Shown in pieces: positions 12,901 to 63,579 of a stretch of 64,000 bases of DNA. Both the position numbers and the translations under genes were made by a program. A model generated the notes under the pieces. It did not search any database, had not been told where the DNA came from, and saw only the letters and a list, made by a program, of their open reading frames with translations. The stretch is taken from NCBI RefSeq assembly GCF_036588685.1, contig NC_086373.1, forward strand, positions 73,780,001 to 73,844,000, read 5' to 3'. Source of the DNA: Mytilus trossulus (lineage: Eukaryota). How positions within the stretch are numbered: position 1 is the first letter of the stretch; each line of letters starts with the position of its first letter.

Positions 12901-15900
12901 ACAAGAGCATTGATGGTGTAATCACCAAATGTAAAGTTGTCTAAAAAGATTCATTTTAGAATAAGCAACTATTATTTACATTTGATATTTTGAATGTAGT
13001 TGCATTAAAATTTATGCATCTTTATTTCAAGCTGACTTTGTATAGTGAAGATTCAAAAAAAGTAATGATGTATTTTGCTGCAAAGGAAAGAAGACATATC
13101 TCTGTTTTAATGTTTTAATTCCCAGATAGATAAAGCCTGAATGTGAATGAATTAAAAGTTAAAATTATTGTTAATTCAAATTTTGAGAATTTTATTTTCT
13201 AATTTATATCTGATTCAATTAAAATCTCCTTGTGAATAGTAATACAAATCTATGTTATTGATATTTCTCCAGAGCGCTGAAGATCTGAATAATTTGAAGA
13301 AAATGCAGCGATTATCTGAACGTGAGGGATGGTTTAACAACCTGAGTAAGACATTGTTCCAGTTATCAAGCCAGGAGGACGATGATGACTCAGATGAGAG
13401 TACACAGGATGCTATAGAGAAAAGGAGGGAAATTCTGGAGAAAGAAATCGCTGAAGAAAGAAAAGCTAAACTTCAGGAAGGTAAGATATAATTATGTTTT
13501 TTATTTCATTTATCACAGGAACACACAGATCTATTTCCATTATCTCAATTTACCTCACGTATTGTCTCAACTATGAAGCTTTTCATAGGAGGCAATGTAT
13601 AGGTTTACTTCTTTTTATTAAGCAGCAATAACTGCAGATTTAAAAAAAGATAGAAATGAAGAAATGTTATTGATTTGATTGGTAGACCTGTATCCATGAT
13701 TTTTATGCCCCATTTATGGGCATTATGTTTTCTGGTCTGTGCATCCTTTTGTCCATCCGTCCATTGTTCATCCATCTGTCCCTTTTGATGAAGTTGAAGT
13801 TTAATCAACTTGTTACTTAGTACAAATGTTTCTTATGATACGATCTTTCTAATTTTAATGCCAAATTAGAGTTTGTACCTTAATTGTGCAGTCCTCTAAA
13901 CATAGAAAATGATAGTGCAAGTGGGGTATCCATGTACTATGGACACATTCTTGTTTTTATTATTATTTTCAATCATATAATTTATTTATTTGCATTATGA
14001 GAAAAATAGATTCTTATGTTGAATTCAAAGAGACCAATCAAATTGCTTTTCTTATTCAATCATCACAACTGACAAGATTTACTGAGCTTTTACTGAAACT
14101 ATTTAACTTGGAATTGAAAATTTAAAAAAAAAATAGGTCAACTACTGAAAATTCATTTGCTATACAGACTAGATATCTCTGTTTCACCAGTCTAATGTCA
14201 ATTTGTGCACAAAAATCATTTAATCTTTAAAATGTTTAAATATTTAACATACCTTTATGACTTCAACTTTCCCTATACCTATCAGTTAGTTTTGAAATGC
14301 AAAAACCACATGATGGTATAAACAAATGTACTTAAATTTTCCAAGCTTTAACCCATCTCTTCTACAAATGTTGCACATGATAGATGTCAATCAGTCTATA
14401 TTTGTCTTAATCCTTTATTATGTTGTTAAGTACAGCTATTTGTAAGAACCAGGCAGAGTGCGATACATGAAGGTTTCAGATTTTTTCTATAATTGGTCTA
14501 GAAGAAGCAATAAATGAAAAATGCTCAAAAAATAATTTTGAGTGGGAAAATATAAGTGGTTGCCATGGTAACTGACACACAATTTTTTGGTTGTTAAGCG
14601 TTGTAAAATCTTTCAAAAATCAGCTAAATCACCACATTTCAGAGCCTGATTATGAATAGAATAATGCATTTTTCCGTTAATTTTCATATGTAACATTGAT
14701 AGAACCTGGTTTAAGCTTCATTTTAGTGAAGATTGCATGTCAACCAAATTTGTAATTTTTTTGTAAAATTTTGTGAAAAAATGCATATTTTCAACTTTTC
14801 TGAAAATTGGATTTTTGCTGAATTACCACATTTTCTCTGGTGTTTTTCAGAAAAGTGCAAATGTGTACAGAATAGTTAGCACTGTAGTTATGAAGTTTGG
14901 ATACTACTTTACCAAATTTAATAGAAAAATGTGTGGGATTTTTTTTAGTTTTATCACCATAGCAACCGATTTTTTCCTTGGAAACAGAGTTTTCATTTGC
15001 AGAATATTGCAGTATAAGAGCTTAAATGTCCTGATTTTTTCATAACCGATAAGAAAAATACATAAAAGCTAACGCAAACTTTAAATTACAATTGTCAAGT
15101 GTTGTTGACTTCAATTGTTACCACGGAAACACATATTATCCTTAGCAACATCCACTCTGAAATTGCATAAATATAAACTTATGTAAAAAAATACATAAAT
15201 AGAGGGTGTTTATTTTCAAATTGGAATATGACTGCTTTGCTTCACTTACAGGCTATTCTGTTTATTTCATACGGTCCAACAAATGTAATATATAATGTAA
15301 TATTATGGTTTGAAGGTTAGAAAGAAAGGGGGGGGGGTGTTAGGTTTATTTTTCTAAGATATCATACATGTAGATTCTTAAAAAGATTATGTTTGGTCTG
15401 AGAGCCTGATTATAAATCGAATCATTTTTTTTTTCAGAAATTTTATATATTTGAGATCGATAATCTATAACTTGGGTTTAGCTTCAGAGGTTTGTTAAGG
15501 TACATTGCAGTTCTCTTGCCATGTTTTTGATTTTTTGTCAGATTTTCGGAAACCTCAGGTTTTATTCATTTGAATGCCATAAAAAAAGGCATTGCCCCCA
15601 TTTATCTTTTTATAAATCTTTTACATGTATAATGATAAGCAATCTGTAAAAGTTTTATAAAATTCAAATTATTTTTGGATAGTTTTGAGAATGTAAACTT
15701 GTCAATGAAATAGCTAAGAAAAGTCAAGAGAGACTATTTTTCCCGCCAAAATTTCAATGGCTAATATCTCGAAATCAAGCACATTGATCTGTATATTTTT
15801 TTTAACTCTTTTGATTCCATTATTAATCCCCTATCGATATCCACTTATATTTAAATTGAAAGATCCAAAATAATGTCATACAATTGTGAAACTCCAAGTC

Positions 15901-17846
15901 AAATGGACAAATTTATCTTTCTGCTTTAAAATGAATTAATTCTCAGAATATGATCAAGATTCTTTGATAGAAAGTCATTGAATTTTCATTTCGATATAAT
16001 GAATTATTTTTAAGATGCTTGGATAGCAATTTAAAAAGAGAGAACATAATTTTATTAATAAAACATCTTAATTCTATATAGATTTCTTGCCAACCTACTT
16101 TACACAAACGAGATCTTACTTTGGTAGTATATTTATATTCGGTTATAGCTATATTAGCAGGGTTGATTTTTGTTTTTCCGTATAACCGCAATTTACTCAA
16201 TTTTCTTTGTAATATATATATACTAGTAGTAACAAGGATATTGTTTCTGGGGGTCTTTATAGTTTGTTGTTCATGCAGTGTAAGCTAATGCTCCGTGTTG
16301 AAAACCGTACTTTGGCCTATGATGGTTTACTTTTAGGAATAGTGACTTAGATAAAGAGTTTTCTTATTGGCATTCATACCACATTTCATGCTCACTTCAT
16401 AACAATTTGAGGGAGGGACTCTTTCAGCACATTTCTAGCACATCTCGATGTTAACACAAGAAAACTTGACTATTATGGGGGATACTGACGATTGTATTGT
16501 TAAAAAATAGTTCTTTTGAATTATGTAGTACATGTCTTGATACTGACTGTTATTTGAGAAATATAGTTGGGTTTTTTCTATTTTGTTTTGGCTCCGATTG
16601 TGAATGAGGCTTATGGTGCTATAAAGATAATTATATCATATTATTATTGTTATAAAGTCTTTATGTTGTTCCAATCATTATACCGCCGCTTCAAAAAAGT
16701 GGGGTATACTGTTTTGCCTCTGTCTGTCTCTCCGTCCTTCCATCCGTCCAGTTCATCCCTCCGTCCCATGCATATTTTCGTTGAATTTTTTCATGAACTA
16801 CATTACAAGGATTTCTGAAAGGTTTATTGAAGTCGGCTATATTGTGTGATAAGTTTTCAGATTCGTCACTAAACCACTTCCTGTTTACCGAACACTTTTC
16901 ACATGACAGCCAAGTTAAAAAAAAAAGTAGTTTGCACCATCACTGGTTGTTTATATGCTTTTTATAGACCCTTTAATTTGGAAAAATAAAATATTCTGTT
17001 CTGTTTTATACTATATACAGATTTCGAATTGAGTATATAGAAAGTATTCGAACTACCTAAGCCTGATGTTATATATACGGAATTATTTCTTTAAAAACAT
17101 GTTTTTATACTTAAACGTAATAATACAGACGGACAATTTTTTTTATCCTGTCACCCTTATGCTTGACTTGATAAGTGTTGGACTTATGGATTGTCGGAGT
17201 ATTGGGCTGTCGGAGCAATGGATTGTTGGACTATTGGGTTGTTGTACTAATGGGTTGTCAGACTAATTGGCTGTCGGACTAATGTGCTGTCGGACCAATA
17301 GGTTTTCGGACTAATGGGTTGTCCGACCAAAGGGCTGTCGGACTAATGGGCTGTCGGACTAATGGATTGTCGGACCAATGGGCTGTCAGAATAATAGATT
17401 GTAACCTGTATGGCCTGGTTAACTAAAGACATTTCTAAAAGTTACCATTTGATCTTAGGAGAACCTTTCTGCAGCCCTCTTTTCGCCATACATACACTAC
17501 TATATTTTTCGACTTTCATGTAGATTTTTTTTATCTTTTCTGTTAATTTAAAAAAGAAGATGTGGTATAATTGTTAATGAGACGGTCACATGCCATTATT
17601 CCGAAAAGATAAAAAAAAATCTACATGAAAGTCTAAAAATATAATGGTAGCTTTTAGAAATTTCTTACGTTAACCAGGCCATATAAGGCAAATTATACAG
17701 TTAACAGTGACACCAATAACATTCAAACTTGATCTCTGTGTATACATGTTTCATAAGATTTAATTGAGGCAAACCAAAATTATAAAATAGAAACCAACTT
17801 TGTGACAACTAATGCACTGACGAACATGGGTTAAACCTACTACAAC

Positions 17847-20800: not shown

Positions 20801-23800
20801 ACCAAAGAAATGTGTTAGCAATTTAACAAAGTCCGAATCTTTGTCTATGTAATCGGCACTCAAATAATATATTTAATATATTCAAATATTTAAAAAATTT
20901 ACCAGCTAAATTTCCGGAAAAGTAATAAATACAAATTAGCGGAAATGCAATACGCCCGTTTTTTTCGGACGACGAAACGCAATTCTCTTTTCAAGTATCT
21001 ACTTGTATGCAACATTTAAAAAAATCAACTTACCCCTTCCCCTTTTTCCAAGCCCCCCCCCCCCCCCAACCCTAATGTTTCATGACATATTACATATATT
21101 GAACAATCTGAAGAAAAATCCCAGACAAGACTGTGAGTGATGCAAAGAATAAAGTCATATTCCAATTTGAACCCTTTATTTATATATTTTTTTTACATAA
21201 ATTTCTATTTATGCAGTTTTCTAGTGGATGTTGCTATGGATAATATGTCTTTCCGTGGTAACAATTGAAGTCAACAACACTTAACGATTGTAGTTTAAAG
21301 TTTGCGTTAGCTTTTATGTATTTTTCTTATCGGTTATGAAAAAACAGGACATTTAAGCTCTTAAACTGCAATATTCTGCAAATGAAAACTCCGTTTCCAA
21401 GGAAAAAATCGGTTGCTATGGTGATAAAACTAAAAAAAATCCCACACATTTTTCTATTAAATTTGGTAAAGTAGTATCCAAACTTCATAACTACAGTGCT
21501 AACTATTCTGTACACATTTGCACTTTTCTGAAAAACACCAGAGAAAATGTGGTAATTCAGCAAAAATCCCAATTTCAGAAAAGTTGAAAATATGCATTTT
21601 TTCACACAATTTTACAAAAAAAATACAAATTTGGTTGACATGCAATCTTCACTAAAATGAAGCTTAAACCAAGTTCTATCAATGTTACATATGAAAATCA
21701 ATGAAAAGTGCATTATTCTATTCATAATCAGGCTCTGAAATATGGTGATTTAGCTGATTTTTGAAAGATTTTACAACGCTTAACAACCAAAAAATTGTGT
21801 GTCCGTTACCATGGCAACCACTTATATTTTCCCACTCAAAATTATTTTTTGAGCATTTTTCATTTATTGCTTCTACTAGGCCAATTATAGATAAAATCTG
21901 AAACCCCCATGTATCACATGTATATGACACACTGCCTGGTTCTTATAAAGAGTTGTACTTAAATCTTTAAAAAAAAAATTTTGAATGATTCCAGTAATTC
22001 AAAAAGGTAAGTTTTGGCTACAGGGTGTTTGATTTCAAAGGTAGTCAAAGTTTTGTGTGTTTTTTTGTATGTGTGTTTTAACTGTTTATTTTTAAAATGG
22101 CAAGGTTACACTTCATTCTATGCATACATATTATTTAAGAATTGTACTGTACGTGTCTGACAAATTTGCCAAGTTTTTGTGAAAGATTTTTTTTAGCCTT
22201 TTAAATAATGTTTCAAATATTTATGCCTCTACTGCACTCTATGAGTATGGGCTATACTGCAATCACCTTATCCATACACCAGTTTGTCCAACAAATATTT
22301 TCTCATCACACTTTACTCAGAAACTGCTTAATCGACTTGGTATTAGGTCAACAGCTTGTTACAGTGGTGATCTGTCAAATATCTACCTGTTTGCCAATAC
22401 TTTTAATTTTCTATATATTGAATGAACTTCATATTTTTATCTCGCATATATGAAAGACTATTGAACAGAATGATTGAATTGTTGGTAAGCAGCCGAAGTA
22501 ATGAGTTTAAACATAAGTAAGAACTCTGCAGATCTGTAAGACACCAACTTCCCGTTTTCCCATACTTTAATTACAAGTGGGGCTAAGCTAAGCATTCGTG
22601 TTTGATTTAATTTATACAGGAACAAGAATGAAGTACACTTTAAAGTTTATTGTTTCATCTGTAAAATACATTATGCTCAGTATTAGTATTGCATGTATCT
22701 TGGTTAACAAATACTGATATGAAATACTTAATGTTTGTTTTTTGTTGTTGTCTCTGCTTTATGATGCGCTTTGCAGTGATTTATTTACTGTTCTTTTTTT
22801 TACATTGTCATCACAAGGAGAATTTTTTTTGTTGATCTTGAGATTTTTGTCTCGCCTTGACAATAGGTATGATGATTTTGGTGCCCAACAGCGGTGTCAA
22901 CAATGTATTAGTTTGTGACAAGTCTAGTTTATGATGATCCACTAGTGTTAGATAAATAATATTTGGTATGCAGTTGTATAAGCATTGGCACATCTCATTT
23001 CCATGGAGATAATTTTGCCCTCCTCTAAGTCATGGTTTATTGACTTTGAAAATTTTGCTTAGTTTTCATGTATTCCTTTGTGATAAGGTCAGCTAAGGGG
23101 GAACTGTTAGTGGTAGGCCAATGTAAGTTAGTATGCAATTGTATAAGCATTAGCACATACATCTCATTTCCATGGTGAATATTTGGTTCCATGGAGATTA
23201 TATTGCCCCACCCCTCATGATCATCATGGTTCATTGATTTTGAAATGTTTACATAGTTTGCAAGTTAATGTTTGTATTTAGGTTTATTTTAAGGGACCAA
23301 CTTATGATAAGTCAATGGTATCTCATTTCCATGGTGATTGTTTAGACATGTACCTTCAGTCATTGTTCATAGACTTTGAATATTTGCATAACTTACTTGT
23401 TAAAGTGTTGTTATTTTATTTCAACATTTGCATTATCAAAATAACAAAAAGGCAAGACATGGCACAATGGCCAAAGGATGCACTGTTGCTAGCACCTGTT
23501 ATCTGTATGTCCATTTATTCAAAATTTTCATTTGTTTCTTCTCCTGTAAGAAAATACTGGTAAGTAGAATTTGAAAAAACAAACTTAACAGAATTAATGT
23601 TTTTAATGTCCTGGAGTGAGTATGATGATTGAAACAGCAATGATGTAACTTACATTGTACCCATTGATCCTTATTTAAAATCTCAGAAACTTCACCTGAC
23701 AAGTGTAAACTGGATTTGACTGTAATAGTGTGCTGTTATCACTTTTCACACAGTGTTCTCCCCAGAAATTGCATTTAGCATCATGGTAAACAGGGAAATT

Positions 23801-26800: not shown

Positions 26801-29607
26801 TAAAAAAAAAGGTGGTCTCATATTTTCGGACAATAACTAAGAAATTTTTCAGCAGTTGTCATGAAACTTTGGTGAATCGTTCATATCTGTTGATGTTCGG
26901 TCCCTTTAGAATTTTATAAATTTTGGATTTTAGATTTCTGAGTTATGGGGTTTTATTCATTAAAAAAGGGGGATTTTACAGTTTTTGGACAATAACTCAA
27001 AAATGCTTTCAACTTTGGTGAATTGTTTATAGCTATTGATGTAATCTCCCTATTGATTTTCATAAATTTCAAATATGACATTGAGAACAAATTGAACTTC
27101 ATTTGTTCATAGTCTGACAACAGATTTACTATAAAGTATTAGGCAACAGTAAGAAATCTTTAATTGAATATAAATTCAATTCATATAACCAATTTCAAGT
27201 TCTTTAGTTACATTTATTCAGAAACCTATAATATGCCAAATATTTAATTACAATCCAAATTGAGACATGTATCAAGCTTGAATATTGTGTCCATTTTAGC
27301 CTAAACTGTTCATGGTTGGACCTCTGCAGGGGTATTCAGCTGCACTCAGCTAAGCAGTTTTTTCTAGTTATACATTGTTAGGAACTTCTTACAATAAACA
27401 CAGTTTTCTTATATAAGTTTTATAAAAAAATTTCATCTCAGTTTTTTACCCCATTTTCAGGCCCAATCCACTAGTAAAACAAATATACTGCATTGCTCAG
27501 CTAATCAAACTTAATCATTCATTGTAGAAAACCCCTCCACTATTTGCACTTCACAGAGAGAAAACGGTGGTTAATGTGGACATTACAGAAGATCAGAAAC
27601 AAGCTGTATTTAATAAACTTGTACGTGAACAGACAAGTCTTCATGATAAGATCAAACAACAACAGGAGCAACAGCAAGAAATGGTGAGTTATATCCAGAA
27701 CTGAAAGAAATTTTTTTTTTGTCAAGTATCCTGACATGCGCTTGTTCTTATTAATACCGGTACTTTGCATAATGTTCAAGTATTTAAGATTTACAGATTT
27801 TGTTCAGACACAGACACAGATGTTGCTGTACTCATTTGCAGAAACAATGCAGTCTAATAGTATCTGTTATTGTTTAACAGTTACTATAATATGCAAGTCT
27901 TTACTTAGCTTTTGTTTTCCTCCACTAAATACATGTAATGAGTAAAGTTTTGAATGTGTAAGTCATTTACAATTAAATTACAGAAACAAGTAGGTCCAGT
28001 AAGACCCTTTTAGGCTTCAAAATATAGCAGTTTTACAAAATTGTTAAAATTAAAACTTTTACCTATTTATTGGAAAGTAGAATACTTCTGCTACATAAAT
28101 ATGGGCTGTTTTTGACAAAACTAGCATCATTAAGTCATGCTAAATTACTGAAATCTTAACAATTTCAGCATTTGTGTTAAATTTTTTAAACGGTTTCCAT
28201 TGTAAATGGAAGTGGCCACATTTGGGTTCATTTTTAATATTTAAATGTTAGTTGTATTTGATGATAAATAAACATATATAAAATTTGAGAGTGAACACAG
28301 ATGTGGCTTATTTCATTTTTGACAAAAAACATCTGAAGAGTGACGTATTATGACATATTTGATAGATTTTCGTTCGTTAGTTGCATAGATTACCTTAGCC
28401 ATATTTGGCACAACTTTTTAGAATTTTGGATCCTCAATGCTCTTCAACTTTGTACTAGTTTGGCTTTATAAATATTTTATTATGAGCGTCACTGATGAGT
28501 CTTATGTAGTCGAAACGCACGTCTGGCGTACTAAATTATAATCCTGGTACCTTTGATAACTATTGTATATTAAAGCTTGAATTTAAGTGTCTTTAATTAC
28601 TTAATCAGTTCAATTCTTTCACTTTAACTAATTGAATCGACTGAAGTGTTCAAAAAGTGTCCAAAATCTTTTATCAGATTAATCTGAAATTTGAGGCCAA
28701 CTCCTTTATTTAAAAAGAGATTTTGAAATATAATTGTACTGAAAGAGTGTTCATTTGTTTGATTATATTTCTAGTTGAGAAGAAGATTAGACAAATCCAG
28801 AGGAAAAAAGGAAATGCAAGCAAAAGAAATTATGGATATGTCTGAAAGACAGAAGAAAGAATATCACAAAACAAAAACTGTAAGTAGAATAGCTGTTACT
28901 ATTAAAATGTACTAATATTATAAAAGCTTGAAAAAACTTGATCACAAGAGAATGGATAGCACAAGTTATTTAAAATATGTCAGTTTTTTTCATGGACAAA
29001 TGCAGATTGTATAACATGGCTCTCTATGTCTGATTTCCAGTGCTGATAAGGGATATTGTTTAACAGAGGAAATCTAAAAAAAAGAAAAGAAAATCGGAAC
29101 TTAAATAATTTGCGCATAAAAAGACTCAGTATTGTACATTTTGAGCATGTTTATAGTAGATTCCAGTATTTTGAATTGCTATGAATTTTTTCTTGCTTCC
29201 AAATAAAATAGGTAAATTCATTCTGTCATAAAATTAAAATATTTGAGTTATCTCCCCTTATATGAAAATGTTTCTAAAAAATTTAATCGAATAAAAAAAC
29301 ATCAGAAGACTCACAATCTACCTTAATGTAAATTTGAATATTGTCTTTGTTGTCTGTTTATGTTAGTCTTTGTTTAAATTGGTATTGTAATGGAGGAGGT
29401 GGGTATGTGTTGTTCACTAGGTGTTAAACTTTTTAATAATATTTCCTGTTATTATTTCTATGCATTTTAAAACATTAATGATTGAATTTACAGGAAGAAC
29501 GTGACAGACAGTTGCAGCAAATGCAACAGAAGATTGCCAAGTCCAAACATAGAGCAAGATCCAGAAGTCCAAACAACATGGGAGCTAGTCCTATCCCAGA
29601 AGATCAG
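959..29607 (+). CDS. Large uncharacterised E/K/R/Q-rich coiled-coil protein, 5'-truncated by the window, multi-exon, terminal exon unresolved
   Basis: 20 AG/GT-bounded exons join in frame with no stop (3260 nt): 959-1074, 1602-1774, 2361-2565, 3070-3225, 3542-3781, 4250-4447, 4848-5013, 8440-8618, 9160-9380, 10472-10629, 10907-11046, 11583-11775, 12233-12378, 13273-13480, 24302-24387, 24873-25058, 26191-26304, 27528-27683, 28775-28879, 29494-29607. All junction phases match. The family is not recognised. Confidence 0.88.
1268..1430 (+). mobile_element. SINE-like repeat fragment with Nin/Deu-domain-like core
   Basis: aaaaccaggtttaatccaccattttct...aatgcctg-aatatgacagttgt resembles the conserved central SINE core. 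Related cores lie at ~39660-39722 (-) and ~56088-56150 (+). Confidence 0.5.
6358..6930 (+). mobile_element. Helentron-associated (HINE/DINE-like) non-autonomous repeat, two internal units
   Basis: Starts tttatgcctcac..gatagtagaggggcattatg (short hairpin), followed by (gtcc/gttc)n microsatellite. Further copies at ~12460-12700 and ~13700-13955. Confidence 0.6.
7147..7914 (+). mobile_element. HINE-like element, single internal unit
   Basis: 5' agctcacttggccc..ggccaagt hairpin; 3' ggtgagc sub-terminal repeat plus aggctctatagagcct hairpin; inserted in a T-run. Near-identical to 30247-31532. Confidence 0.7.
9520..9725. mobile_element. Tc1/mariner-type MITE
   Basis: TIR ctgtggattcatt / aatgaatccacag flanked by TA at 9518-19 and 9726-27. 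Confidence 0.75.
12460..12700 (+). repeat. Partial copy of the 6358-6930 HINE-like family
   Basis: Shares ttaaagtttttggtcaagg..tttttgatgaagttgaagt..atcaacttgaaactt..catggtccactgaacatagaaaatgata. Confidence 0.6.
13700..13955 (+). repeat. Copy of the 6358-6930 HINE-like family
   Basis: tttatgcccc..gggcattatgttttctggtctgtgc start and tggacacattcttgttt end, as in the 6358 copy. Confidence 0.6.
17176..17399 (+). repeat. 16-bp minisatellite, ~14 degenerate units of tgtcggactaatgggc
   Basis: Directly visible tandem periodicity. Confidence 0.85.
17409..17683. repeat. Small foldback/MITE-like inverted repeat
   Basis: tatggcctggttaac..tttctaaaagttaccatt pairs with aatggtagcttttagaaa..gttaaccaggccata. 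Inner arms gactttcatgtagattttttttatcttttc / gaaaagataaaaaaaaatctacatgaaagtc. Confidence 0.7.
17848..17881. repeat. Poly-C tract (34 nt)
   Basis: Homopolymer run. Confidence 0.9.
18660..19018. mobile_element. Palindromic non-autonomous element (Crypton-like architecture)
   Basis: ~75 bp inverted arms 18664-18822 centred on gaagcgc-ggaa-gcgcttc, followed by a unique tail. The family assignment is inference. Confidence 0.55.
20030..20957 (-). mobile_element. Internally deleted Mutator-like element (MULE)
   Basis: TIR ggcgttttacgtttccgcaaattgacattacttttccggaaa versus the reverse-complemented right end gggcgtattgcatttccgctaatttg..ttacttttccggaaa. ~9 bp TSD gttttttcc (20021-29) / gtttttttc (20958-66). 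Sub-terminal ttccggaaa repeats. Confidence 0.75.
20350..20860 (-). pseudogene. MULE DDE transposase C-terminal fragment, frameshifted
   Basis: Manual translation across ~4 frameshifts: SADYIDKDSDFVKLLTHFFGLAYF..EECFVELIADAPS/CMKFADYILE/LPPTIWTSPPD/KRTTNGGE/AFNAHPNEQFYTTHLNIFVFVDVLLKLQTTSYIKMR. RTTNxxE followed by H-x-N-I-F is typical of metazoan MULE transposases. Confidence 0.8.
22840..23465 (+). repeat. HINE-like repeat with degenerate tandem units; related copy at ~62680-63130
   Basis: ttttgtctcgcctt start, aaggcaagaca end, and repeated catctcatttccatggagat motifs shared by both loci. Confidence 0.5.
23751..23938. mobile_element. 188 bp MITE with CAG termini and a 5-bp TSD (hAT5-like)
   Basis: Perfect 14 bp TIR cagtgttctcccca / tggggagaacactg. 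tcaca at 23746-50 and 23939-43. Confidence 0.7.
25207..25782. mobile_element. MITE with GAG...CTC termini (Sola-like)
   Basis: Imperfect ~30 bp TIR gagtatgttcgataaggtcctaaaatggccc / gggccaaatacggcctttagcgaacttactc. No clear TSD. Confidence 0.6.
26450..27070 (+). repeat. HINE-like repeat with ~4 degenerate ~150-160 bp tandem units
   Basis: Recurrent ggacaataactcaa..gaaactttggtgaat..tctattga..ctccct units after a (gtct/gtcc) microsatellite. Confidence 0.6.
28384..28564 (+). mobile_element. Truncated retrozyme / Penelope-like pLTR repeat, copy 1
   Basis: About 155 bp align with 61608-61762. Both copies end at tttgataactat and contain a hammerhead motif. Confidence 0.75.
28486..28529 (+). ncRNA. 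Type I hammerhead ribozyme motif, core intact, stems II/III weakened
   Basis: Stem I gcgtca(28486-91)/tggcgt(28524-29); CUGAUGA 28492-98; stem II gtct-tatgt-agtc (one U-U mismatch); GAAA 28512-15; minimal stem III c-gcac-g; GUC cleavage triplet ending at C28523. Confidence 0.8.
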
Positions 29608-48951: not shown

Positions 48952-51900
48952 AATTGTCCTGAAGAAGTCGATGTTTTCACAATTCCTCATTCTCGAATGA
49001 AGGAATTGGTCAAAAAATATCTTAACATGGTACACACAAAATCCCAAATACTATCATTGTTTTTCTTAAAACCATTACTGCTGTCGTTTCAATAACTAAT
49101 GAACAGATCGAAAAACAACAAAAGTCACTACCACATTTCAGCAAAACTTGCACAGGCACTAAGTCTTGTTTCTATCCATTGGAAGACCCACTATCAACGT
49201 ATATTTACGAGAAGGTACCCAACTACTTTTTTCACCTGTCCGCTTAAAACGGATCTCCTGTAGTTGGTGATCGCAATACTGGTATACCAGTATTGTCCAC
49301 AATACTGGTATACAATTTTTGTACCAGTATTGTATTCCAGTATTGTACCAGTATTGTGCTTTTTTTTAAATAAACAGTATAGGTAATTAATCATTTATTA
49401 AAAGTGTCACATATATGCATAATGAAATTAGCATATATGACAAGACAATTTTATTAGGAACAATTGTCATGATTGTGTTTAACTGATAATGCCATTGATG
49501 GTACACTGTGATTGTCATCAAATAAAGTTTCAAATCATTCTGACTCAGCATTTTAACAAACTCTTTACTTTCTTCTATGTTTTCTTCCATTTCTCTCTTT
49601 CCAAGACTCAATATTATATTTTAGTGAATTTTATATTGACACTAATTCTGTAATAGCTTCTGTATAAAAAAAAACTATTATCATCATTGGTATTGTCTAT
49701 TTTTTCTTCTGATGTGATTTCTGCTATCCCTCCCCCTTCCTATATTGGCATTTAGGTATTCAGTCTCTGTGGACTTTCTCTAAAAGTATGTGACTTGACT
49801 TTAAATCAACACAGAAACATTATAAATATATGATAACGGATTTGTAATATAATTGTGTGTGGGTAGGATCTCACTGTGTAAATAGTCTCAGCACTGCAAC
49901 ATATTTGGTGGAGGCATCACTGTATATAAGAAAGATCACAAGTTATACATACTAGCGTATGGTTCCTCTACAAAGGGGGTTAAACATACAGAGGTAAGGT
50001 ACATGTAAGGTAAGGATTATAACCAGGTTCCCCTATACAGCAACTAATTTTATAATTGATATCTTTTGTTGTGAGAGATTAATAAGAAAATAAAGACAAC
50101 TGAAAGAAATGCACAATATGACCTTAGTACACAAAAAATTGATACATGTATTAAATATCTGTCTGTAATAATTTGCTTGAATTTATTAAATATTTACTCA
50201 GATAATTAATAAGCGTTTCTCCTATTTTATCTATATCATGTATATTGAATTAAATAAAGTAAAGAAATATGATAAATTATTAGCAATTGTTTAAATAATA
50301 ATGATGATATTAATTGAGTTTATTTCAATAATCCTTTGTTTATTTGTGCCAGTATATTAATGACTTTTAACAGGTTGTTAATTGATTTCACAATTATCCT
50401 CTATAATCTTTTTGAGTTCATTTAATCTCCCTTTGATCTTCAATATAGTCTAGTCAACAATACAACTACAATACTGGTATATCAGTAATGTACCAGTATT
50501 GCTGTTTTTTTAATAAAAAGTTACAATACTGGTACAAAATTTTTATACCAGTATTGTGGACAATACTAGTATACCAGTATTGCGATCACCAACTACAGGA
50601 GATCCCTTAAAACCCTTATATCTCTGTCAATTCAGTCTCAAATTTTTTGTTCAATACACCATTCGATTCATGAAAAGTTTATAAATATGGATCACGTTGA
50701 TAGTGGGTCTTCCAATGGATAGAAACAAGTGCATGTGAAAACTTGCTAAAGTCTATATTTAAAAAACTGCATGAACACAAGCTCTAGTGACCTTTCAAAT
50801 CAAAGGAATAACAAATTAATATATGCATACAAACGTCATGTTATGTAAACAATACGATTTTAAACATCCTTTTATAGCTGTCGAAATAAGCTGTATCAGG
50901 TCTGTTCGGGCCCAATATACTTTCACACCCTACACGTTCGCACCTCGCACGTTTGCACCCAAAGTCTGTTCGCACTCCACACGTTCGCGCCCAGTTTTAA
51001 TTCAAATTTCAGTTGAATAATTGAAAAATCAAGATTTTTGTTTTTAATTACTTTGGTGTAAATACTGAATGTAATTATAGCTGGGTATGAGTAAAAGATT
51101 GAAGATTTTAAATGAAAAACACAAAAGATAATTGTTTTAAACAGCTTGGTCCCTTTGATCTGAAACAATGAAACAATAAAATATAGCAATACACTATTAT
51201 AACCAGGGTTTCCCCTGGTTCAATTATTTTTTTCGCCACTTCTTTCGTCAAAACAATATATTTTTCGCCACTTTATTATTTTTTTCGCTAAGTAATACAA
51301 ATATATTTTTCTTTTAAGTTAAAGTATATGCTTGAAACACGTGTATCACTGAAACGACTTTGAAGTACCCACTCAAATCAATAATATATATGAAAGTTAA
51401 ATGATAAAGTTTTAAATCAGAGACCTTTCTTGCTTTTGAACATTTTTCATCATAACAGCAATTTTCTTTTCTGGACTATCATACAAAAGAAGGAGAGGAA
51501 GCGTAAAAAATTTGCTTTAAACACGTGCGTCGCAAAGTGGTTAAGAAACCTTTTTGTGACATATGACAGAAGCCATTTAACTATATCATTTTGTCATATC
51601 ATACAATCAACACCTTTATTAATTAGTCCTTTGATGTCGATAGCTATGAATGCAATCAGCCGCTTATTGATTTTCGGTCAAAATCTGAACGAGTTCAAGG
51701 TGAATTCCGAGTATTGTCTGATCGGTAAAGTCAGAGTTATATATTTCTTTCGCCAAATTCTTTCACCAATGACAAATTTTAATCGCCACAATTGTTATTT
51801 TTTCGCAAATTGCGAAAATGGCGACCGCCAGCGGAAACCCTGATTATAACCCAAATATGATCAAACATGTTAAAATTTATCCAACACACAAAAAAACGTA

Positions 51901-54900: not shown

Positions 54901-57900
54901 ATGATTTTGTGTTGTAGGTGTTTCAGCCAATGTTAATCAAGTATTTTACTACTGATGAACTACGCAGAATTAAATTCAAAGTTTTGGAAAAACACTTTTG
55001 TCAGAAGGATGATTGTGGAAAAGAGAAACTTCCAGAGAAAACAGATTTTGTACTAAGTAAGTATATTCATGGAATATGGTTGTTTCTATGAACAGCTTAG
55101 AAACATTAATGCAACACAATAAAAGAAATAACAACCTATTTGAAAAAAAAATTAACAAAATAGTTGCATTGTTTCAGAATCCATGAAAATCTGATTTTGT
55201 GATAAAGATTGCATGCAATCAAAACCTTTATGGGGCTAGCCTGACAGTTTTCAATCCTCTAGATTTTATCACTATATTTGATATATACAATACAGAGCAT
55301 TAAGCATAACATTCTATACATCCTACCTTTTTAAATTTATAGTAATTTATCAATGAAATATATCCTTACAAATTTAAGTTACAAAATAATGTATTTGTTT
55401 ATAACAATACTTGTCAAGAAAAATACATAAATTATGCATTGTGCATTAAGCTAGTATCTATAATGTATTTTGAAAACTTCGATGATGTCATTGTTAAAGT
55501 AACATTAAAAATTGGAGTTATGTCTCTATACATGATTGTAGAAGAAATACTCCCAATTCATAATAGGTATTGCCTCAAGAGATTTATGTATGCATTTTTA
55601 AAAAAATGAGGAAATCTAATTCAGCATGACATACTTTTTCAGTATGATGCCCAGTATTTTATAGGGTATGCTAAATAAGAAAGGTCTTACAATGTCTCCA
55701 AACTATTTCCAGGCGATTCATCAGATGAAGAATGCACAGAAAAACTTGAACCCACTAAGGAGGATGTTGTGCCTAGCGTCAACAGTTGTGTAGTAGATAA
55801 AGTACCTGATGAGGTGGCAATACAGATATTTTCTTACCTTAATCCACAGGACTTAGGCAGGTGTGCTCAAGTCTCACATCGCTGGAATAGACTTGCATTA
55901 GACACTAGTTTATGGAGAAACTTTTTACCTATACAGTGGTCCAAAGGTATAATGGGTTATAAAAAGAAATGTAATCATATGTTTTTTGATTGAGTTAAGT
56001 CTGCCAATTGATATTTTATCGTGTGTTTTTCTATGTTGTGATGTTATGCTATTGTTTCAGAAAAAGGGAGAAGGTTTGGATCCATTAAAACGTTTAATCC
56101 CGCTGCAAATGTTTGCACCTGTCCTAAGTCAGGAATCTAATGTACAGTAGTTGTCGTTTGTTTATGTAATATATACGTGTTTCTCGTTTCTTGTTTTGTT
56201 TATATATATTAGACCATTGGTTTTCCCGTTTGAATGGTTTTACACTAGTAATTTTGGGGCCCTTTATAGCTTGTTGTTCGGTGTGACCCAAGGCTCCGTG
56301 TTGAAGGCCGTACTTTAACCTATAATGGTTTACTTTTTAAATTGTTATTTGGATGGAGAGTTGTCTCATTGGCACTCACACCACATCTTCCTATATCTAT
56401 ATATGCTGAAGATATAATATAATACCAATATGAAATGATTATTATACCCCACACAAAGGGTATAATGTTTTTGACCCGTCCATCCATCAGTCAGTCCTGT
56501 TTCTTGTCATCGCATCTCCTCTCAAACCACACAACAGAATTTCACGAAACCTTTTAAGATAATAAGGACATACTATGTAGATGTGCATATCAACAGAAAA
56601 TTACGATTCAATTTTTTTCTTGGAGTTACACCTCTTTGAACTTATTTGCTCTAAGGTACTTCTTCAACAGTTTGTCAACTCAACTCTCGGAAACCGCAAC
56701 AGAATTTCATGAAATTTTGTAAATAATAAGCACATACTATGTAAATGTGCATATTGACAGGAAATTATTATTCAAATTTTTTTCTTATACAATTTTTTTT
56801 TCTTACACTTATTTAATTTCTCCAATGACAAGGTGGGGACATGGGGTATGTGAGCGTGCTCACCAAGGTTCTTTAATTATAACAGGTTCTAAAATACAAT
56901 TCCAATTCGAAATGTTTATTTATAATTTAATACTGTAAGGAATTCTGCATCTTTGTGATTATTCTTCTAAGTTTCATGAAAATTCCAGTTCTTTATACTA
57001 GGTAACTAATAATATGTTTGGAATTATGTGACATTTGATGAAATATAGGTCAATATGACTTACATGTCATGCTTATTTAACTTAAAGTTATATATATTAG
57101 GTCTTAGATTCTTTAATTCAACCTTCAATCATCAATCAGAAGTGATTTAATTGCTGTCACTTATATGGTTGAAAATTTATATTTGAAAATTCCTGTATGT
57201 GTTAGCAGTTACCATTATGTTTTTTACAAAAAAATATCTGCTACTTTTCATTTCTAAAGCATCTTTTAGCATCTGAAATTTAGTATAAAGTTTTCTATAT
57301 TTGAGATGTTGAATTACAACAAATATCAAATAAGACTAGTAAACTTACCCAGTATGTATTAATAAGATAGTATAATTTTTAGGAGTTTGGAGTTTTACTC
57401 CCATAGTAGATATTGAAGTAGAAGAAAAAAGTTTGTTAGAGAATAAATACGAATCTGTAGCCATATATTATGATGAAGATGCAGACATTGATGAATCTGA
57501 AGAAGATGATGATACTAAGAGGATAAAAAAGGTAAAAAAATATTATATTTCATTTGACCTTTGCTTAATGGTAAAACATTAGGGAATTAAAATGATGTGT
57601 GCTTGCATTGATCAAGTAAATGGCATTTGTAAATGATAAAATCCTAAAGAATTTAGACCTCATTCGAAACTTCACTGCAATTTATTTTTCACACGAGCCA
57701 TGTTACTTGTGCAAACCAATAGATTTAAATTGCTAATTAGTAAAATGGCATACATGAAACAACATTGATCTTTAATGATAAGTAGGTTTTACTATGTTTT
57801 ATGGCATTATAAAACTTGCCAGAATGATTATTTGTAGTTGAAAAAATTACATAATGTAAAAGAAATTGATGTACAATCATTGTTTCACACCAGTTTATAT

Positions 57901-60900
57901 TCATCTTTACTTTTTAATTCATTATATAAATTGTGATAAAACTTTTCATAAAAAGCCAATGTTACACCATTTTATTGTCTGACAGACAAATGCATGATGG
58001 ACATACACTTTTATTCTGTTTTTATTTAAGATAAAGATGGAAACCAGCATGTTGACAAGTTTGACGAAGTATCTGTTACCTAAAGTAGGATATGGTGTAA
58101 AAACAATCAATCTGGCTTTTAGTCAAGGCCTTGTTAATGGTTTGGTACGTATAATGATTAAATATATATAGAGTAACCATAAATTGTCTCGAAATATCAA
58201 TGTTATTTGTACAAGGCTTAGAAACAGGTAGAAAGCCAGGCTGTGCCAAGCATTTCTACCTGTTTCAAGCTGAGTACAAATAACATTAATATTTAATCTA
58301 AGAGTAGCATAGATAAAATAATCGAGACAATGTATGGTTATTCTTATTATGCTGCAACTCTTATAAATGTTCTAAATGAAGTATTTACGGTAAAAACCAT
58401 TATTTCTTAATTTTGAGCGGAAGACATGCAAATTTTTGGGACCCTGTGTTTTATTGACATCATGAATAAAACTCTACGGAAATGCATTGTCAATGTCATA
58501 AACAAGGTGATATACAGTCAGTGAGTGTATTACACATATGAAAATAGGGTCAATGCACTTGAACAGCTCAAATACACAGCTGCAGTATACATTAATATTA
58601 TTAATTGGTATATTTTAACAAATTTGATTCGTTAAGGGATAGTCACATGTTAAACTATATTTTGGAAGGTAGAGAGAAAACGGTGGAAAGCAAAATGCAT
58701 ATTGACCTGCAAAAAGCATATCGCACGGTTAGTTTTAGAATATCTAAAAACCGATATACTTTGTGAGATCATGTAATGAATTTCAGGATATTGTTTAACG
58801 TTCTGAAACACATGATATCTGTGATCGATTATTTGACGAAAAAAATCTTCGAATACATAAGATATAAAAAAAAAAGTAAATGAAATAACAACTAATATGT
58901 TGTTATTGACAAGGAGACAATGTAATATCTATAAAATTCCAACAAACCTAAATGACGATTTTGATACAAATATGGTCGGAAATTAATAATAAAACAAATA
59001 TAGCTTTTGTATGAGGTCAATACAGGATATATCGACCCAAAGAAGTATATCGACCTCGGACTTCGTCCTCAGTCAATATACTTCTTTCAGGTCAATATAT
59101 CCTGGTATCGACCTCATACAAAGGCTAAATTTGTATAGTATCGACCTCATACAAAGGCTATATTTGTATAATGTATAGTATAAGGGAGATAATTCTATTT
59201 TGCAGTTTGAAATTTACACATTTGGATATATTTACATATTACATTGAAGATAAGGATATTTTGAAATGTTGTCAATGCTTCTGAAACAGCAATGGTTGAA
59301 TAATCAGTGAATCACACAAAGTGTATCTACTTAAAGAAAAATGTCCCTTTGATTAAAATTAATTGTTGAAACCTCTCATATTCTGCATTATATTATGAGT
59401 CAATCATCTTATTTTAACATTATTATTTTTTCTAGTTGTATAAGATGCTGTCATTATGCCCATTAGTAGAGAACCTAGATTTAACTCATACTATGGTGTC
59501 AGATCTTGGATTTAAAAGGTTAGTGAAACATTAAATTCAAGCACTATTTGAATGAATTATAATATGTTGTACTGACTGAAAACATGTGAAAAATTTACAA
59601 AGATAACTTTGTACAAAAGCAATTTAAACCACTTGATGCTGATTTAGGATTTACTCTTTATCTTGATACTTGAAAAAGGACAAACCAACTTGGTGGATTT
59701 GTGTTAATATATGTCAATAAAGTGGTAATTCAATAGTTATGTTACCCACTAGGTCAAACCAAAGACTTAAAAATGATATATGTAGCTACACAGTCAAGAA
59801 TGCACATTTAGGAATAAAGAAACACTGTCTGCTTCAGACCAAAAACATTATATTGGTATCTAATCAGACCAAAAACAATATATATGTTGTTCCAGTTACC
59901 CAACAGACCCTGGTTTAACTTAGTTATAATAAATAAATACATGAACTATGCAAAAAGAATTATTACTCATTTTTATGAAATAAATAGCTGATGCAGATTC
60001 CAGTTATAAATTTGTGGACTATGGTTTTTGTTTTTCAGCCTTGGTCGAAATGGGTGTGGAAGTAATCTAAAAAGAATAGATTTAGCTGGCTGTAAGAATA
60101 TTACTGATGTGACTTTAGAAAGATTGTCCCAAGCATTACGTTCGAAACCTGAAATCAGACATGAAGACTGTGATGATAACAATCATGAAGAAAAAAATGA
60201 AATTGAACTGAATGAAAAGGGAGATAAATCTTCAAAAGATTCAGACTGTCATGTGACTTGTAGACAGAATATCAATGAACAAATAGTCGATGAAGACTGC
60301 AATATATCTTTCATGAATGACATTGAAGATCATTCTCCAAGGACTTCTGAAAGTTTGGGAAACCAGAAAGGCAGATCTGTTGACCTAACAGTGGCAGCAA
60401 CCCCAAAATTAAAGGTTGGCTATATAACAAAGGAATCTCCTAGATTGACTTTAAACACTGGGAATATTTCCTTGGTTAGACAAAGAACTAGTTTATGTTG
60501 TCCTAAGAATTGTTGTTTGGAATCTGCATCAGTAAAACATTTTGATCAGCTTTCTAAAAATGTGAACTTCAAACATCTGAACAACACAGATGAATGGACT
60601 AAAATCTGTGCTGTAAAACATGGACATGAATCTGAAATCATCTGTGATAAATTAGAATGTGGACTTGAATATCTCAGTTTATCTGGCTGTTCTCATATTA
60701 CAGATAAAGGGATAAGGTAGGTTTAGGAGACTGGTAGATGATCTATGTAAACTGCAGGAATTTAAATTTTGTTTTAGAAGTGTGGTGCAGAAAAGAAGAA
60801 AATTTAATGAGTACAGTGTAATTATTCATGACACGTTACCAATTCACACAGAAAAAAAACCTCAAAGCAAACAAACTATAATTCACTGAGTTTGTAACCA

Positions 60901-63579
60901 TTTTTAAAAGTGTGTATGAGGATCTCTAGATTTGAATTACATAATAAGTGGCCTTCTCAGTTATCTTTCTTGAAGTTGTTGTCTGCAATTTCTTTTTTAT
61001 CAGAAATTTAGATGTTGTCTGATATAGCAGTTGCTTTGTAATCAAAAATTGAAATTACCTCTTGAACTGCTTGCACTATTTTGCTACCTAAACAAATTCA
61101 GTTGGCTATATATTAAAACAAATGATGTTTTTTTCCTCATTAGAATAAACAAATCTAGCTGATGCATATTTTGGAATTATACTTCCCTTTTGGCTAAAGT
61201 TCTTGTTGAATTTTACCGAAAAAGGTCATCTTTTAAAACTAAAACACAAACTAAACAAGGAGCCAGCCAATCTTTTGGATGATCTTAGAACAAACTTTAA
61301 TCATTTGTTAGTTGTTATGATAAATTGAATATGCAACTAAACTTGTAGAGCAAATAGTTTCTTGGTAAACTTTTGAGTTTAAAGTGTATTGTCAGATAAG
61401 GCAAGTGCATCATTTTATAAAAAGTAGATACAAATGTATAAGGGAAATGGCAATTACATGAAAAACCAAAAAATATCAAGTGGTCAACTTACAGTTTTCA
61501 ACAAAATTCAGGCTGGTCATGTTCTAAATTGCTGGAAGTTGTGACTAGATATCATTAACAGAGATTTGACAGTCACCACAAACTTACCATTTGACAAAAA
61601 TATTAAGACAACTTTTTTAAATTTTGGATCCTCCATTCTCTTCAACTTTGTACTTGTTTGGTTTTATAAATATTTTTATTATGAGTGTCACTGATGAGTC
61701 TTGTGTAGATTAAACGCGCGTCTGGCGTACTAAATTATAATCCTGGTATCTTTGATAACTATAAAGAGGTAATGACAAAAAACAACCACTGATAAGGATC
61801 CTGACATGTAACAGACACATACACACTATTCTTATAAACAACTAAAAGGAATGAAGTCATATTTGGTCAGCACGCAGCAGCTTAAAAAGATATCAGTTGT
61901 AAAATGTGAGCAAAGTTCTGTTCTGTTAGACACTTTTATCTTATTATTTTTCAATATTTTGACTGAACTTTGTAAAATGTTTTGTTTCAAATTAGGCTGT
62001 TTCTCAATTGAATTGTTTTGTATTTTTCATGTGTGGATGTATTATAGCCGACTATACTGTATGTGTTTTTCTTATTGAGTCATTGTTGGAGGCTGTACAT
62101 GTACAGTTGCCTATAAAAGCTTACATCCACTACATTGGAACCAAATCTCCTTATTTTATATTTAAAAAAATTTTGTGACACATTTCTTAAGTACATGTAC
62201 TACTGAACACATTGACTTAGTCAGATGCTTTAATAGCATTGATAAGTTTAATGTATGAGAACTTTTCAAATCAGTCAAAACTGTTTTCTATTTTCAGAAA
62301 CTTTTCTTAGATCAATCATACATGTCCTTCCTATTTTCAGATATTTTGATTTAGGAGTGGGGGTCTTGTTTTGTATGGCAATTAAATTAGCTTGTATGAC
62401 TAGTAACAGGGTTTAGATATTTCATTAGTAATGTCAATAATTTGCATGATAAGTAACAGTTAATGATAGAAAATGAAAAAAAATAATATATCATTTTTAA
62501 ATCATCTATATTTAGTATGATAAATACTTTTCATTAATAAAGCTTTGAAAAAGGGAAGTTCGCAGGTATTTACTTTAGTTACTTGCTCTGGTTATGCTGA
62601 AAATAGAAAACTTTAATGTAGAGAAAACTGAGTCATAATTGATATTAAGTTTTGGCTTTGATTAACAAAAGGCTAATTTTTGTCTTACCTTGACTCAGTC
62701 AAAATGTGAGACTAATGTGTGCTATTTCTGGTGCTAGCAGATTTGTTTGTGATTAGGTCAGTTTATGGGGAACCACTTATGATATTACAGTCAATGATAA
62801 TTAATATGCAGTTGTATTAATACCAGTATTGATACATCTCATTTCCATGGAAATCATTTGCCCCCTCAGTCAAAGTTTACTGAATTAAAAACTTTAGTCT
62901 AGAGTAAACATGGTAAAGTTTGTGATTATGTCAATTTAAGGGTATGCAGTTTCATAAGCATTTGTTATATCAGTAGATATTTTCACAGAAATTATTTGGC
63001 CCTGTACCCATAGTCATGGTTCATTGGCTTTGAATATTTTGCATATTTTACATTTCAAAGTACATGTATTGCAATTCCAATTTCAACAATTGTGTTTTAC
63101 TATCAAAAATATATGCAGGCTAGACAAATCTCTGTCAACAGTTTATTTTAAGTTTTACAATTATATTAAACAACTCTAGATCTATTACCATGTTTCTGAG
63201 GAAAACATTTACTAATGAAATAATTACCCCGGTATTTGAAATAAACCCAAATTTGAAAGTGGCAAAGGTACAAACTATTAAGAATGAATAAAAAAATGAA
63301 GACATCTTCTTATGTCTTTGACAATAATATTAATTTCCAATTTTTAGGGCATTAGTGATAGACCAGCAGACATTTCCAGCATTGCAATTCCTTGACCTAT
63401 CTGGTTGTGATAAAGTGACTTCTCTAGCTCTGACTGACCTGGTCAGTGTGTGTACCTCACTTGACCATCAGTTCTTATATTATTGTGACAATGTAACAGC
63501 AGATCCATATTCTGATTCTGCCAGTGGATGTCAGAACTTAGAATGTCCGACGAGAGCTTGTTGTCGTACAGGATGCTAG
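48943..63579 (+). CDS. FBXL5: F-box/LRR-repeat protein 5 (iron/oxygen-sensing SCF substrate receptor), 9 exons, 683 aa
   Basis: Exons 48943-49029, 54309-54644, 54918-55056, 55713-55946, 57383-57531, 58031-58144, 59436-59518, 60039-60716, 63348-63579 (2052 nt, phases consistent). N-terminus MAPNCPEEVDVFTIPHSRMK; hemerythrin EFKAHEQIEN, HSDN, PHMEEEE; F-box PDEVAIQIFSYLNPQDLGRCAQV; DEDADIDESE; LRRs; C-terminus YYCDN..SGCQNLEC..RACCR. Confidence 0.96.
49165..50729. mobile_element. Inverted-repeat element in FBXL5 intron 1 (outer shell)
   Basis: Perfect 36 bp inverted repeat cttgtttctatccattggaagacccactatcaacgt (49165-200 / 50694-729), with degenerate extension outward. No clear TSD. Confidence 0.65.
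49251..50605. mobile_element. 1355 bp non-autonomous DNA transposon, GG..CC termini, 8-bp TSD
   Basis: TIR ggatctcctgtagttggtgatcgcaatactggtata.. (~80 bp). Perfect TSD cttaaaac at 49243-50 and 50606-13. Arrays of caatactggta. Confidence 0.85.
50892..52272. mobile_element. MULE-type MITE with 9-11 bp TSD
   Basis: Imperfect TIR ..ggtctgttcgggccca / tgggcgcgaacggacc with gttcgcac sub-terminal repeats. Direct repeat (tc)gaaataagc at 50881-91 and 52271-81. Confidence 0.75.
51204..51842. mobile_element. hAT-type MITE nested in the MULE-MITE
   Basis: TIR cagggtttcccctgg / ccagcggaaaccctg. Perfect 8-bp TSD attataac at 51196-203 and 51843-50. ttcgcca sub-terminal motifs. Confidence 0.88.
52885..53600 (+). 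repeat. HINE-like repeat with ~4 degenerate ~150 bp tandem units
   Basis: Recurrent ctctaact..aaccaaatg..gaaacttatacac..tttgaattttggtgg..ttatgcccctt. Confidence 0.6.
55982..56400 (+). mobile_element. SINE-like repeat (longest copy of a family whose 3' end recurs at ~2603, 10210, 16250, 34020, 52800)
   Basis: Core tttaatcccgctgc..gcacctgtcctaagtcaggaat; tail ggagagttgtctcattggcactcacaccacatcttc. Confidence 0.65.
56440..56875 (+). mobile_element. HINE-like element with two internal units
   Basis: ttatacccc..aagggtataa 5' hairpin, gtcc/gtca microsatellite, ggggtat sub-terminal repeat and gtgagcgtgctcac 3' hairpin. Confidence 0.6.
58171..58610. mobile_element. Palindromic non-autonomous element (Crypton-like architecture)
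   Basis: Inverted arms 58171-58343: taaccataaattgtctcg..aatgttatttgtac..gaaacaggtagaa / ttctacctgtttc..gtacaaataacatt..cgagacaatgtatggtta. Confidence 0.55.
58995..59170. repeat. Palindromic repeat with a terminal 33 bp tandem duplication
   Basis: tttgtatgaggtcaatacaggatatatcgacc..aagaagtatat / atatacttctt..ggtcaatatatcctggtatcgacctcatacaaa. The last 33 bp are repeated at 59138-70. Confidence 0.65.
61608..61762 (+). mobile_element. Truncated retrozyme / Penelope-like pLTR repeat, copy 2
   Basis: Aligns with 28410-28563; lies in FBXL5 intron 8. Confidence 0.75.
61685..61728 (+). ncRNA. Type I hammerhead ribozyme motif, predicted inactive
   Basis: gtgtca CUGAUGA gtct-tgtgt-agat TAAA c-gcgc-g UC tggcgt. 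The conserved GAAA is TAAA (G12 lost at 61711). Confidence 0.7.

Follow-up and report, generated by a model that had tools for sequence, protein, structure and literature searches.

The question raised by this locus is whether a hammerhead ribozyme found in an intron of the mussel Mytilus trossulus, within a 64,000-nucleotide stretch of DNA (referred to here as the window), has any bearing on the gene in which it lies. Our preferred reading, to which we give a probability of about 0.88, is that the ribozyme belongs to a 5'-truncated half-monomer from a mussel non-LTR retrozyme of high abundance, which a Penelope-like element (PLE) likely wrote into a MITE and which is likely to be decaying neutrally and to have no role for the host. 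The single locus matters little and its value is as the footprint of a copying process.

Spliced contigs place the hammerhead in the transcribed strand of the intron at 27684-28774, as a sequence-only reading of the window had proposed. In 4/4 runs from four studies (the RNA status of the runs is guessed) contigs join 27683 to 28775 as well as the neighbouring exons, and the host gene is therefore on the + strand with the hammerhead in sense. It should be noted that these contigs come from animals other than the genome source, possibly of other species, and may be without the insertion. The features of this part of the host gene are:

27528..27683, + strand: upstream coding exon of the host gene (from contig joints)
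27684..28774, + strand: host intron, GT..AG, 1091 nt (joined out in 4/4 runs)
28775..28879, + strand: downstream coding exon of the host gene (from contig joints)

The product is a large, K/E/Q-rich, coiled-coil-like and unnamed protein, with no match to Pfam in any of the seven exons tried and none in an atlas search made with one exon. At 98% likeness no insertion junction was bridged among the contigs listed for the four runs, a result which is uninformative about the carrier status of the animals. The retrozyme had a contig depth well in excess of that of the exons, but depth was also high over the MITE and we discounted the observation for that reason.

All of the elements of a type I hammerhead can be read directly within the intron (individual residues are assigned their established roles in the hammerhead):

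28486..28529, + strand: type I hammerhead
28486-28491 and 28524-28529: stem I, GCGTCA with TGGCGT, 6 bp including two G-U
28492-28498, + strand: hammerhead core, CTGATGA
28499-28511: stem II, a 4-bp stem with a U-U mismatch (T28500/T28510)
28512-28515, + strand: GAAA
28515-28522: stem III and its loop, two pairs (including C28516-G28521) and the loop GCAC
28521-28523: GTC, with the predicted cut 3' of C28523

The stretch from 28486 to 28529 has the CUGANGA, GAAA and NUH core with an open helix I, and the core pattern was found twice in the window with 0.00 matches expected. The Rfam Hammerhead_1 model (RF00163) aligned to the same positions over its full length with a score of 22.3 bits and E 0.0074, which together with the sequence bears out the earlier description of a full type I topology with intact CUGAUGA, GAAA and GUC. 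The score is nonetheless below the RF00163 gathering score of 34, and at this threshold Rfam gave no matches across the whole window, so that the covariance search proposed earlier succeeded as a full-model alignment but not at the gathering level. We note that a natural family-majority copy, compared as a stretch of equal length, scored 33 bits (E 2.2e-6) and is also just under gathering. The mismatch in stem II and the GCAC loop had both been singled out as departures from the family, and they are: the majority has A at 28510 (146/150 copies) and G at 28519 (136/150 copies), where the window copy has T and A. The label of a minimal hammerhead had to be given up, as helices of 6/4/1–2 bp with a palindromic loop are described as the canonical form in PMC4209133. 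The minimal hammerhead of PLEs (min-HHR), which is defined in the same account as lacking helix III, having a helix II of 7–8 bp and a helix I of 4–5 bp, and lying in the pseudo-LTR (pLTR), was considered and rejected for the window copy with its helices of 6/4/2 bp and 4-nt loop.

The hammerhead is carried by one of two truncated retrozyme copies in the window:

28383..28564, + strand: 5'-truncated retrozyme copy, monomer positions 1-182 of 355, with 8 differences from the family majority
61608..61762, + strand: second truncated copy with the same 3' end and the G of GAAA lost, among the exons of an F-box gene on the + strand (which we take to be FBXL5)

The first had been delimited earlier as 28384..28564; its sense retrozyme hammerhead stands, with the start corrected to 28383 and the extent to half a monomer (182 of 355 nt). 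The second had served as the reference for a GCGC loop, and while the loop is indeed GCGC, the missing G of GAAA means that it is not an intact reference. Fetched loci show a 355-bp periodicity in head-to-tail tandem, and there are at least 11,977 exact core matches in the genome compared with none for a reversed control. At the level of the family we therefore find what defines a non-LTR retrozyme, a type I hammerhead in a high-copy tandem repeat of 150–450 bp which is non-coding and without LTRs (the 355-nt unit is repeated and there is no common ORF flank). The window copy, with one hammerhead and 182 of 355 nt, is not itself an active retrozyme. A half-monomer is typical, since among the fixed-end arrays of 97 fetched 10-kb loci, which were chosen by a 3'-end pattern, 83/114 were shorter than one monomer and the median length was 217 nt. 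In its workings the family resembles the metazoan non-LTR retrozymes, among which the features tested place it, and the retrozyme identity first suggested for the window copy agrees with published mussel non-LTR retrozymes in unit length, topology and abundance. This kind of element is already known, and the window copy is one of some 12,000.

The retrozyme copy is itself inserted into another element:

27984..28371, unstranded: left part of the MITE, the older element (compared with relatives; about 560 bp when empty, 80–84% identical)
28372..28382, unstranded: 11-nt filler at the 5' junction (from comparison with empty MITE copies)
28567..28707, unstranded: remainder of the MITE on the right, where the inverted repeat has a deletion (compared with empty copies)

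Other fetched copies of the MITE, 11/11, align to 27989-28370 and resume at 28552-28567, and have terminal inverted repeats. As none of these relatives is interrupted at the insertion point and their ends are inverted, the retrozyme is nested within the MITE, and this part of the sequence-only reading is upheld. The outer element is short (about 560 bp), high-copy (4,026 first-look candidates) and bounded by terminal inverted repeats, as expected of a MITE. The junctions of the retrozyme consist of the 11-nt filler on the 5' side and two extra bases on the 3' side, and comparison with the empty MITE copies showed no target-site duplication around the insert.

We then considered whether the changes in the hammerhead reflect selection. 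Compared with the majority sequence of 140 copies, the window copy is changed at 8/182 positions, two of which are within the 44-nt hammerhead where 1.9 would be expected (P 0.61). In a set of 128 dispersed copies, some belonging to older subfamilies, 35 have no hammerhead change and 59 have at least two, with stem II changed in 24 and loop 3 in 34. The hammerhead changes in the window copy are likely to represent neutral decay, judging from these comparisons of sequence. CpG decay was considered as the origin of the loop change and dropped, with 5.9% of CpG sites changed compared with 7.5% of other C/G positions.

It is unlikely, in our view, that purifying selection filters sense-intronic copies so that those which persist are enriched for damage, the window copy then being a tolerated survivor without function. 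Both window copies are in sense and damaged, and 3/5 full-span sense-intronic arrays hold only damaged hammerheads, but so do 2/3 of the full-span antisense arrays; similarly, fast intronic ribozymes lower mRNA, but slow ribozymes were without effect on it (Fong 2009 as cited in PMC10274809). We predicted exons in the 97 loci and scanned 95 exons, hand-picked from the 246 candidates listed, against Pfam, and this placed the same Pfam family on both sides of the insertion in three sense (L113, L172 and L176) and three antisense loci (L151, L157 and L168). Relaxed calling gave 8 sense and 6 antisense intronic arrays (p 0.79, CI of the sense fraction 0.29–0.82; eight were added by eye), in a sample of 14/97 loci with 83 uncalled, including L177 (tandem sulfatase genes, ambiguous) and L179 (within an LTR retrotransposon). 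There is no sense deficit in this sample (8:6), which argues against a filter, although the sample is small and moderate selection may still be compatible with it. An unchanged hammerhead was found in 2/5 sense and 1/3 antisense intronic arrays spanning the whole hammerhead. The clearest case is the three-hammerhead array of L113, in which one hammerhead is identical to the majority and which lies in sense within an aromatic-amino-acid-lyase gene (presumably histidine ammonia-lyase) having many collinear exons; a family-identical hammerhead is also in sense at L193, where the gene call is weaker. Both count against the filter and, with the 8:6 orientation, L113 also counters the suggestion that attenuation is a condition of residence in sense. 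This small test gives no sign that sense-intronic copies need silencing. Retrozymes of Xenopus are reported to be depleted from introns (10.64898/2026.07.22.740005).

Weaker activity in cis is predicted for the window copy. Nearest-neighbour estimates put the hammerhead fold at -1.7 kcal/mol with the U-U mismatch and at -5.7 kcal/mol without it, a loss of about 4, and stem II no longer folds alone. Unconstrained folding produced no hammerhead for the window copy (z 0.83, -0.63 and 0.59), and since it misses that of a family-type copy as well it cannot decide activity. Monomers of the mussel element are reported to self-cleave at about 0.1/min, and the requirement for a dimer was shown for axolotl (both PMC7229834), so the statement that these elements cleave best as dimers does not carry over to the mussel. 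HHR_Amex2 of the axolotl, whose helix II also has a U-U mismatch, still reached 22% cleavage in 1 h (PMC7229834), and for this reason we call the window copy weakened and not dead, a mismatch of this kind being compatible with weak activity. At 2–4 kb/min (the upper elongation figure is a mammalian rate; PMC10274809), transcription would cover the 251 nt to the 3' splice site in 4–8 s, by which time 0.6–1.2% of transcripts would have been cut at the family rate, compared with 10% in 1 min and, should splicing be delayed by 5–10 min, 39–63%. Cis cleavage by the window copy is predicted to be below the family rate of 0.1/min, and to be negligible before the 3' splice site is made. The earlier reading was right that the copy is predicted to be weaker in cis (by about 4 kcal/mol), but the idea that the pre-mRNA survives through this attenuation is not supported, given the neutral rate of change and the 59/128 copies with two or more changes.

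A further suggestion was that the host pre-mRNA is cleaved in trans by plentiful retrozyme RNA, which would tune the gene, the copy being kept because it is attenuated, and this we consider the less probable of the two selective accounts and very unlikely to be correct. Trans cleavage of a schistosome host transcript is said to have been proposed by Ferbeyre in 1998, and our literature search found no support for this. In the family, the 8 nt of stem III and its loop are perfectly palindromic, and if the partner lends its intact stem II a domain-swapped complex can be drawn with 13 pairs and -17.7 kcal/mol, so that cutting by retrozyme RNAs is sterically possible. Mussel tissues are also rich in retrozyme circles (PMC7229834), and schistosome hammerheads are reported to cleave in cis or in trans in vitro (PMC6765202). 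However, the loop change breaks the palindrome and the window copy is therefore predicted to be a poorer trans substrate: net of self-structure, the complex is worth -3.2 kcal/mol at 37 C and +0.1 kcal/mol at 15 C, compared with -7.5 and -4.2 kcal/mol for a family-type substrate. The enzyme half of the trans pair is predicted to be paired away in the circle, linear retrozyme forms make up from under 5% to 25% of the RNA (PMC7229834), and the hammerhead has changed at the neutral rate. Any trans effect would also strike thousands of loci, mostly better substrates, and does not single out this host gene. Trans cleavage of a host pre-mRNA would be a surprising regulatory layer if true, for which the window copy is a poorer candidate than most.

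As to how such copies are made, the informative feature is the 3' end of the insert:

28524..28564, + strand: stretch from the cut site to the fixed 3' end of the family, 41 nt (array-end comparison)

The 3' ends of arrays are concentrated at monomer positions 178-192, some 41 nt beyond the cut site (position 141), and this was found with the window copy as query (25/31, some duplicates included), with the other half of the monomer (14/18, or 13/17 without one flank duplicate) and in bystander arrays, where 18/30 end at 178-187 (p 1e-17). Older subfamilies seem by eye to end at the homologous place. The 5' ends, in contrast, are scattered. Target-site duplications of at least 6 nt flank 14/114 arrays compared with about 5 in shuffles and are mostly TAT-type overlaps, and we found no clear rule among these arrays. 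Cleavage by the ribozyme would give a monomer whose end is the cut site. As the observed ends lie beyond it, we infer that priming took place within a circle or multimer that was still uncut; the position of the fixed 3' end speaks for such a template and against the cut monomer. A Penelope-like enzyme has been shown to initiate internally in vitro (PMC11167929).

The same genome contains a young Naiad element of high copy number whose 3' end is likewise fixed, and whose protein is encoded with an in-frame TGA read as selenocysteine. In both the retrozyme and Naiad a GTGGA-stem-loop-TCCCC hairpin starts at +29 from the fixed end, the motif having been defined after the fact and the end position being uncertain by a few bases. 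The hairpin is kept in 354/371 retrozyme matches, which come from overlapping loci and are not independent. A background of 1.86 million strand-bases has 13 occurrences, at least 10 of these being evidently in older retrozyme copies. The two elements otherwise have no alignable sequence in common, with an alignment no better than shuffles. The window copy ends 29 nt before the place of the hairpin, which is absent from the host intron.

We propose that an uncut circle or multimer would have served as template for a reverse transcriptase, likely Penelope-like, that was primed internally and not at a ribozyme-cut end, with the hairpin 29 nt downstream probably guiding the enzyme, and that by stopping early it would have left a 5'-truncated half-monomer in the older intronic MITE. 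We slightly favour a more specific version in which the reverse transcriptase of Naiad, a PLE without hammerheads, recognises the hairpin common to both RNAs and begins copying inside an uncut retrozyme circle, at a point 29 nt 5' of the hairpin, the intronic copy being an abortive product; initiation at this point would explain both the fixed 3' end and the partial tandems. Neither a monomer nor a circle should be released by a lone hammerhead, and the window copy, which does not have the hairpin, would not be re-copied and was likely dead on arrival. If true, this version gives an animal retrozyme both a named helper enzyme and a cis signal, and the common hairpin allows a direct test of which enzyme it is that mobilises retrozymes in animals. 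We found no report of the fixed 3' end or of a link to Naiad in the accessible text of the literature on retrozymes and PLEs, supplements aside.

A fixed 3' end with variable 5' truncation is also the pattern of Penelope, and Xenopus retrozymes resemble pLTRs (10.64898/2026.07.22.740005), which might suggest that the fragment is the pLTR end of an autonomous, hammerhead-bearing PLE and not a non-coding retrozyme. This is largely refuted and we give it next to no weight: longer copies run upstream into the 355-bp non-coding tandem, 5' flanks are common among the 129 arrays only alongside common 3' flanks, as in duplicated loci, and the one PLE family examined, a Naiad, shows no homology to the monomer that can be aligned. 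No autonomous element carrying the same pLTR turned up in the 129 array flanks or in the Naiad family.

Hammerheads in RECK and C10orf118 (PMC3088659) and the HDV-like ribozyme of CPEB3 (PMC10274809) are likewise self-cleaving motifs in the sense strand of an intron, but these are single-copy, conserved across species and active, whereas the window copy is one of some 12,000, nested in a MITE and with neutral-looking changes, and nothing in its sequence suggests domestication of the kind seen in RECK or CPEB3. The non-LTR retrozyme of Mytilus galloprovincialis (Cervera and de la Pena 2020, PMC7229834) is similar to the family described here in having a type I hammerhead, thousands of copies, low GC, no ORF and two or more subfamilies, with a repeat of 350–390 bp (construct Mg353) compared with 353–355 bp here, this likeness being by unit length, topology and abundance as described; the window copy differs from it in being a lone half-monomer with two hammerhead changes and no circle possible. 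No mention of a fixed 3' end or a Naiad-like hairpin was found in the accessible part of that account. PLEs differ in that the retrozyme has no ORF and a canonical hammerhead, whereas PLE minimal hammerheads are without helix III (PMC4209133) and Naiads are described as without canonical hammerheads (PMC8557442). What the retrozyme has in common with PLEs such as Poseidon_Ac (PMC11167929) and the Naiads (PMC8557442) is that the 3' end is fixed at a point beyond the hammerhead cut, that copies are truncated at the 5' end and form partial tandems, and that the junctions are AT-rich and for the most part without a clear target-site duplication.

The host gene of the intronic retrozyme copy lies at one end of the window and an F-box gene, which we take to be FBXL5-like, at the other, with several further repeats in the same stretch:

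961-29607, multi-exon host gene, its long product coiled-coil-like and K/E/Q-rich
14426-15448 and 21188-21962, long inverted arms
17164-17450, 16-bp tandem array within a repeat with short inverted ends
49165-49374 and 50506-50729, further pair of long inverted arms
55715-63484, + strand, F-box gene with leucine-rich-repeat-like exons

The host gene exons that we tried matched neither Pfam nor the atlas. The second truncated retrozyme (61608-61762) sits between exons of the F-box gene. The first pair of arms, up to 97% complementary and spaced ~6–7 kb apart, is probably a DNA transposon of the foldback or composite type.

Compared with the copy in the window, a better test of cleavage within an intron or of the release of circles is offered by an array at a second locus, where one of the three hammerheads equals the family majority exactly:

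L113:4654-5532, sense, intronic retrozyme array of 2.5 units in the gene for an aromatic-amino-acid lyase

A separate repeat family (L109:9134-9200, L150:5262-5328 and L164:3207-3273) carries a hammerhead-derived segment with an altered core, followed by a shared downstream sequence that differs from that of the retrozyme.

The proposed source of the retrozyme-copying enzyme is very abundant in G000, the genome in which copies were counted (24,923 first-look candidates):

L231:693-7407, also L230, L232, L233 and L237 (G000 C4:17517500-17527499 and others), young Naiad Penelope-like element

The end of its ORF (L231:3345-3385) holds a hammerhead-core-like string, CTGATAA then GGAAC, in a 5' context similar to that of the retrozyme, which may be a relic or chance. 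Naiad has a tandem unit of ~4.0 kb, and its coding region has an in-frame TGA separating open stretches of 424 and 480 aa. Together with the N-terminal GIY-YIG of the protein, this TGA would, judged by sequence, fit the selenoprotein Naiads known from clams and spiders, as described in PMC8557442.
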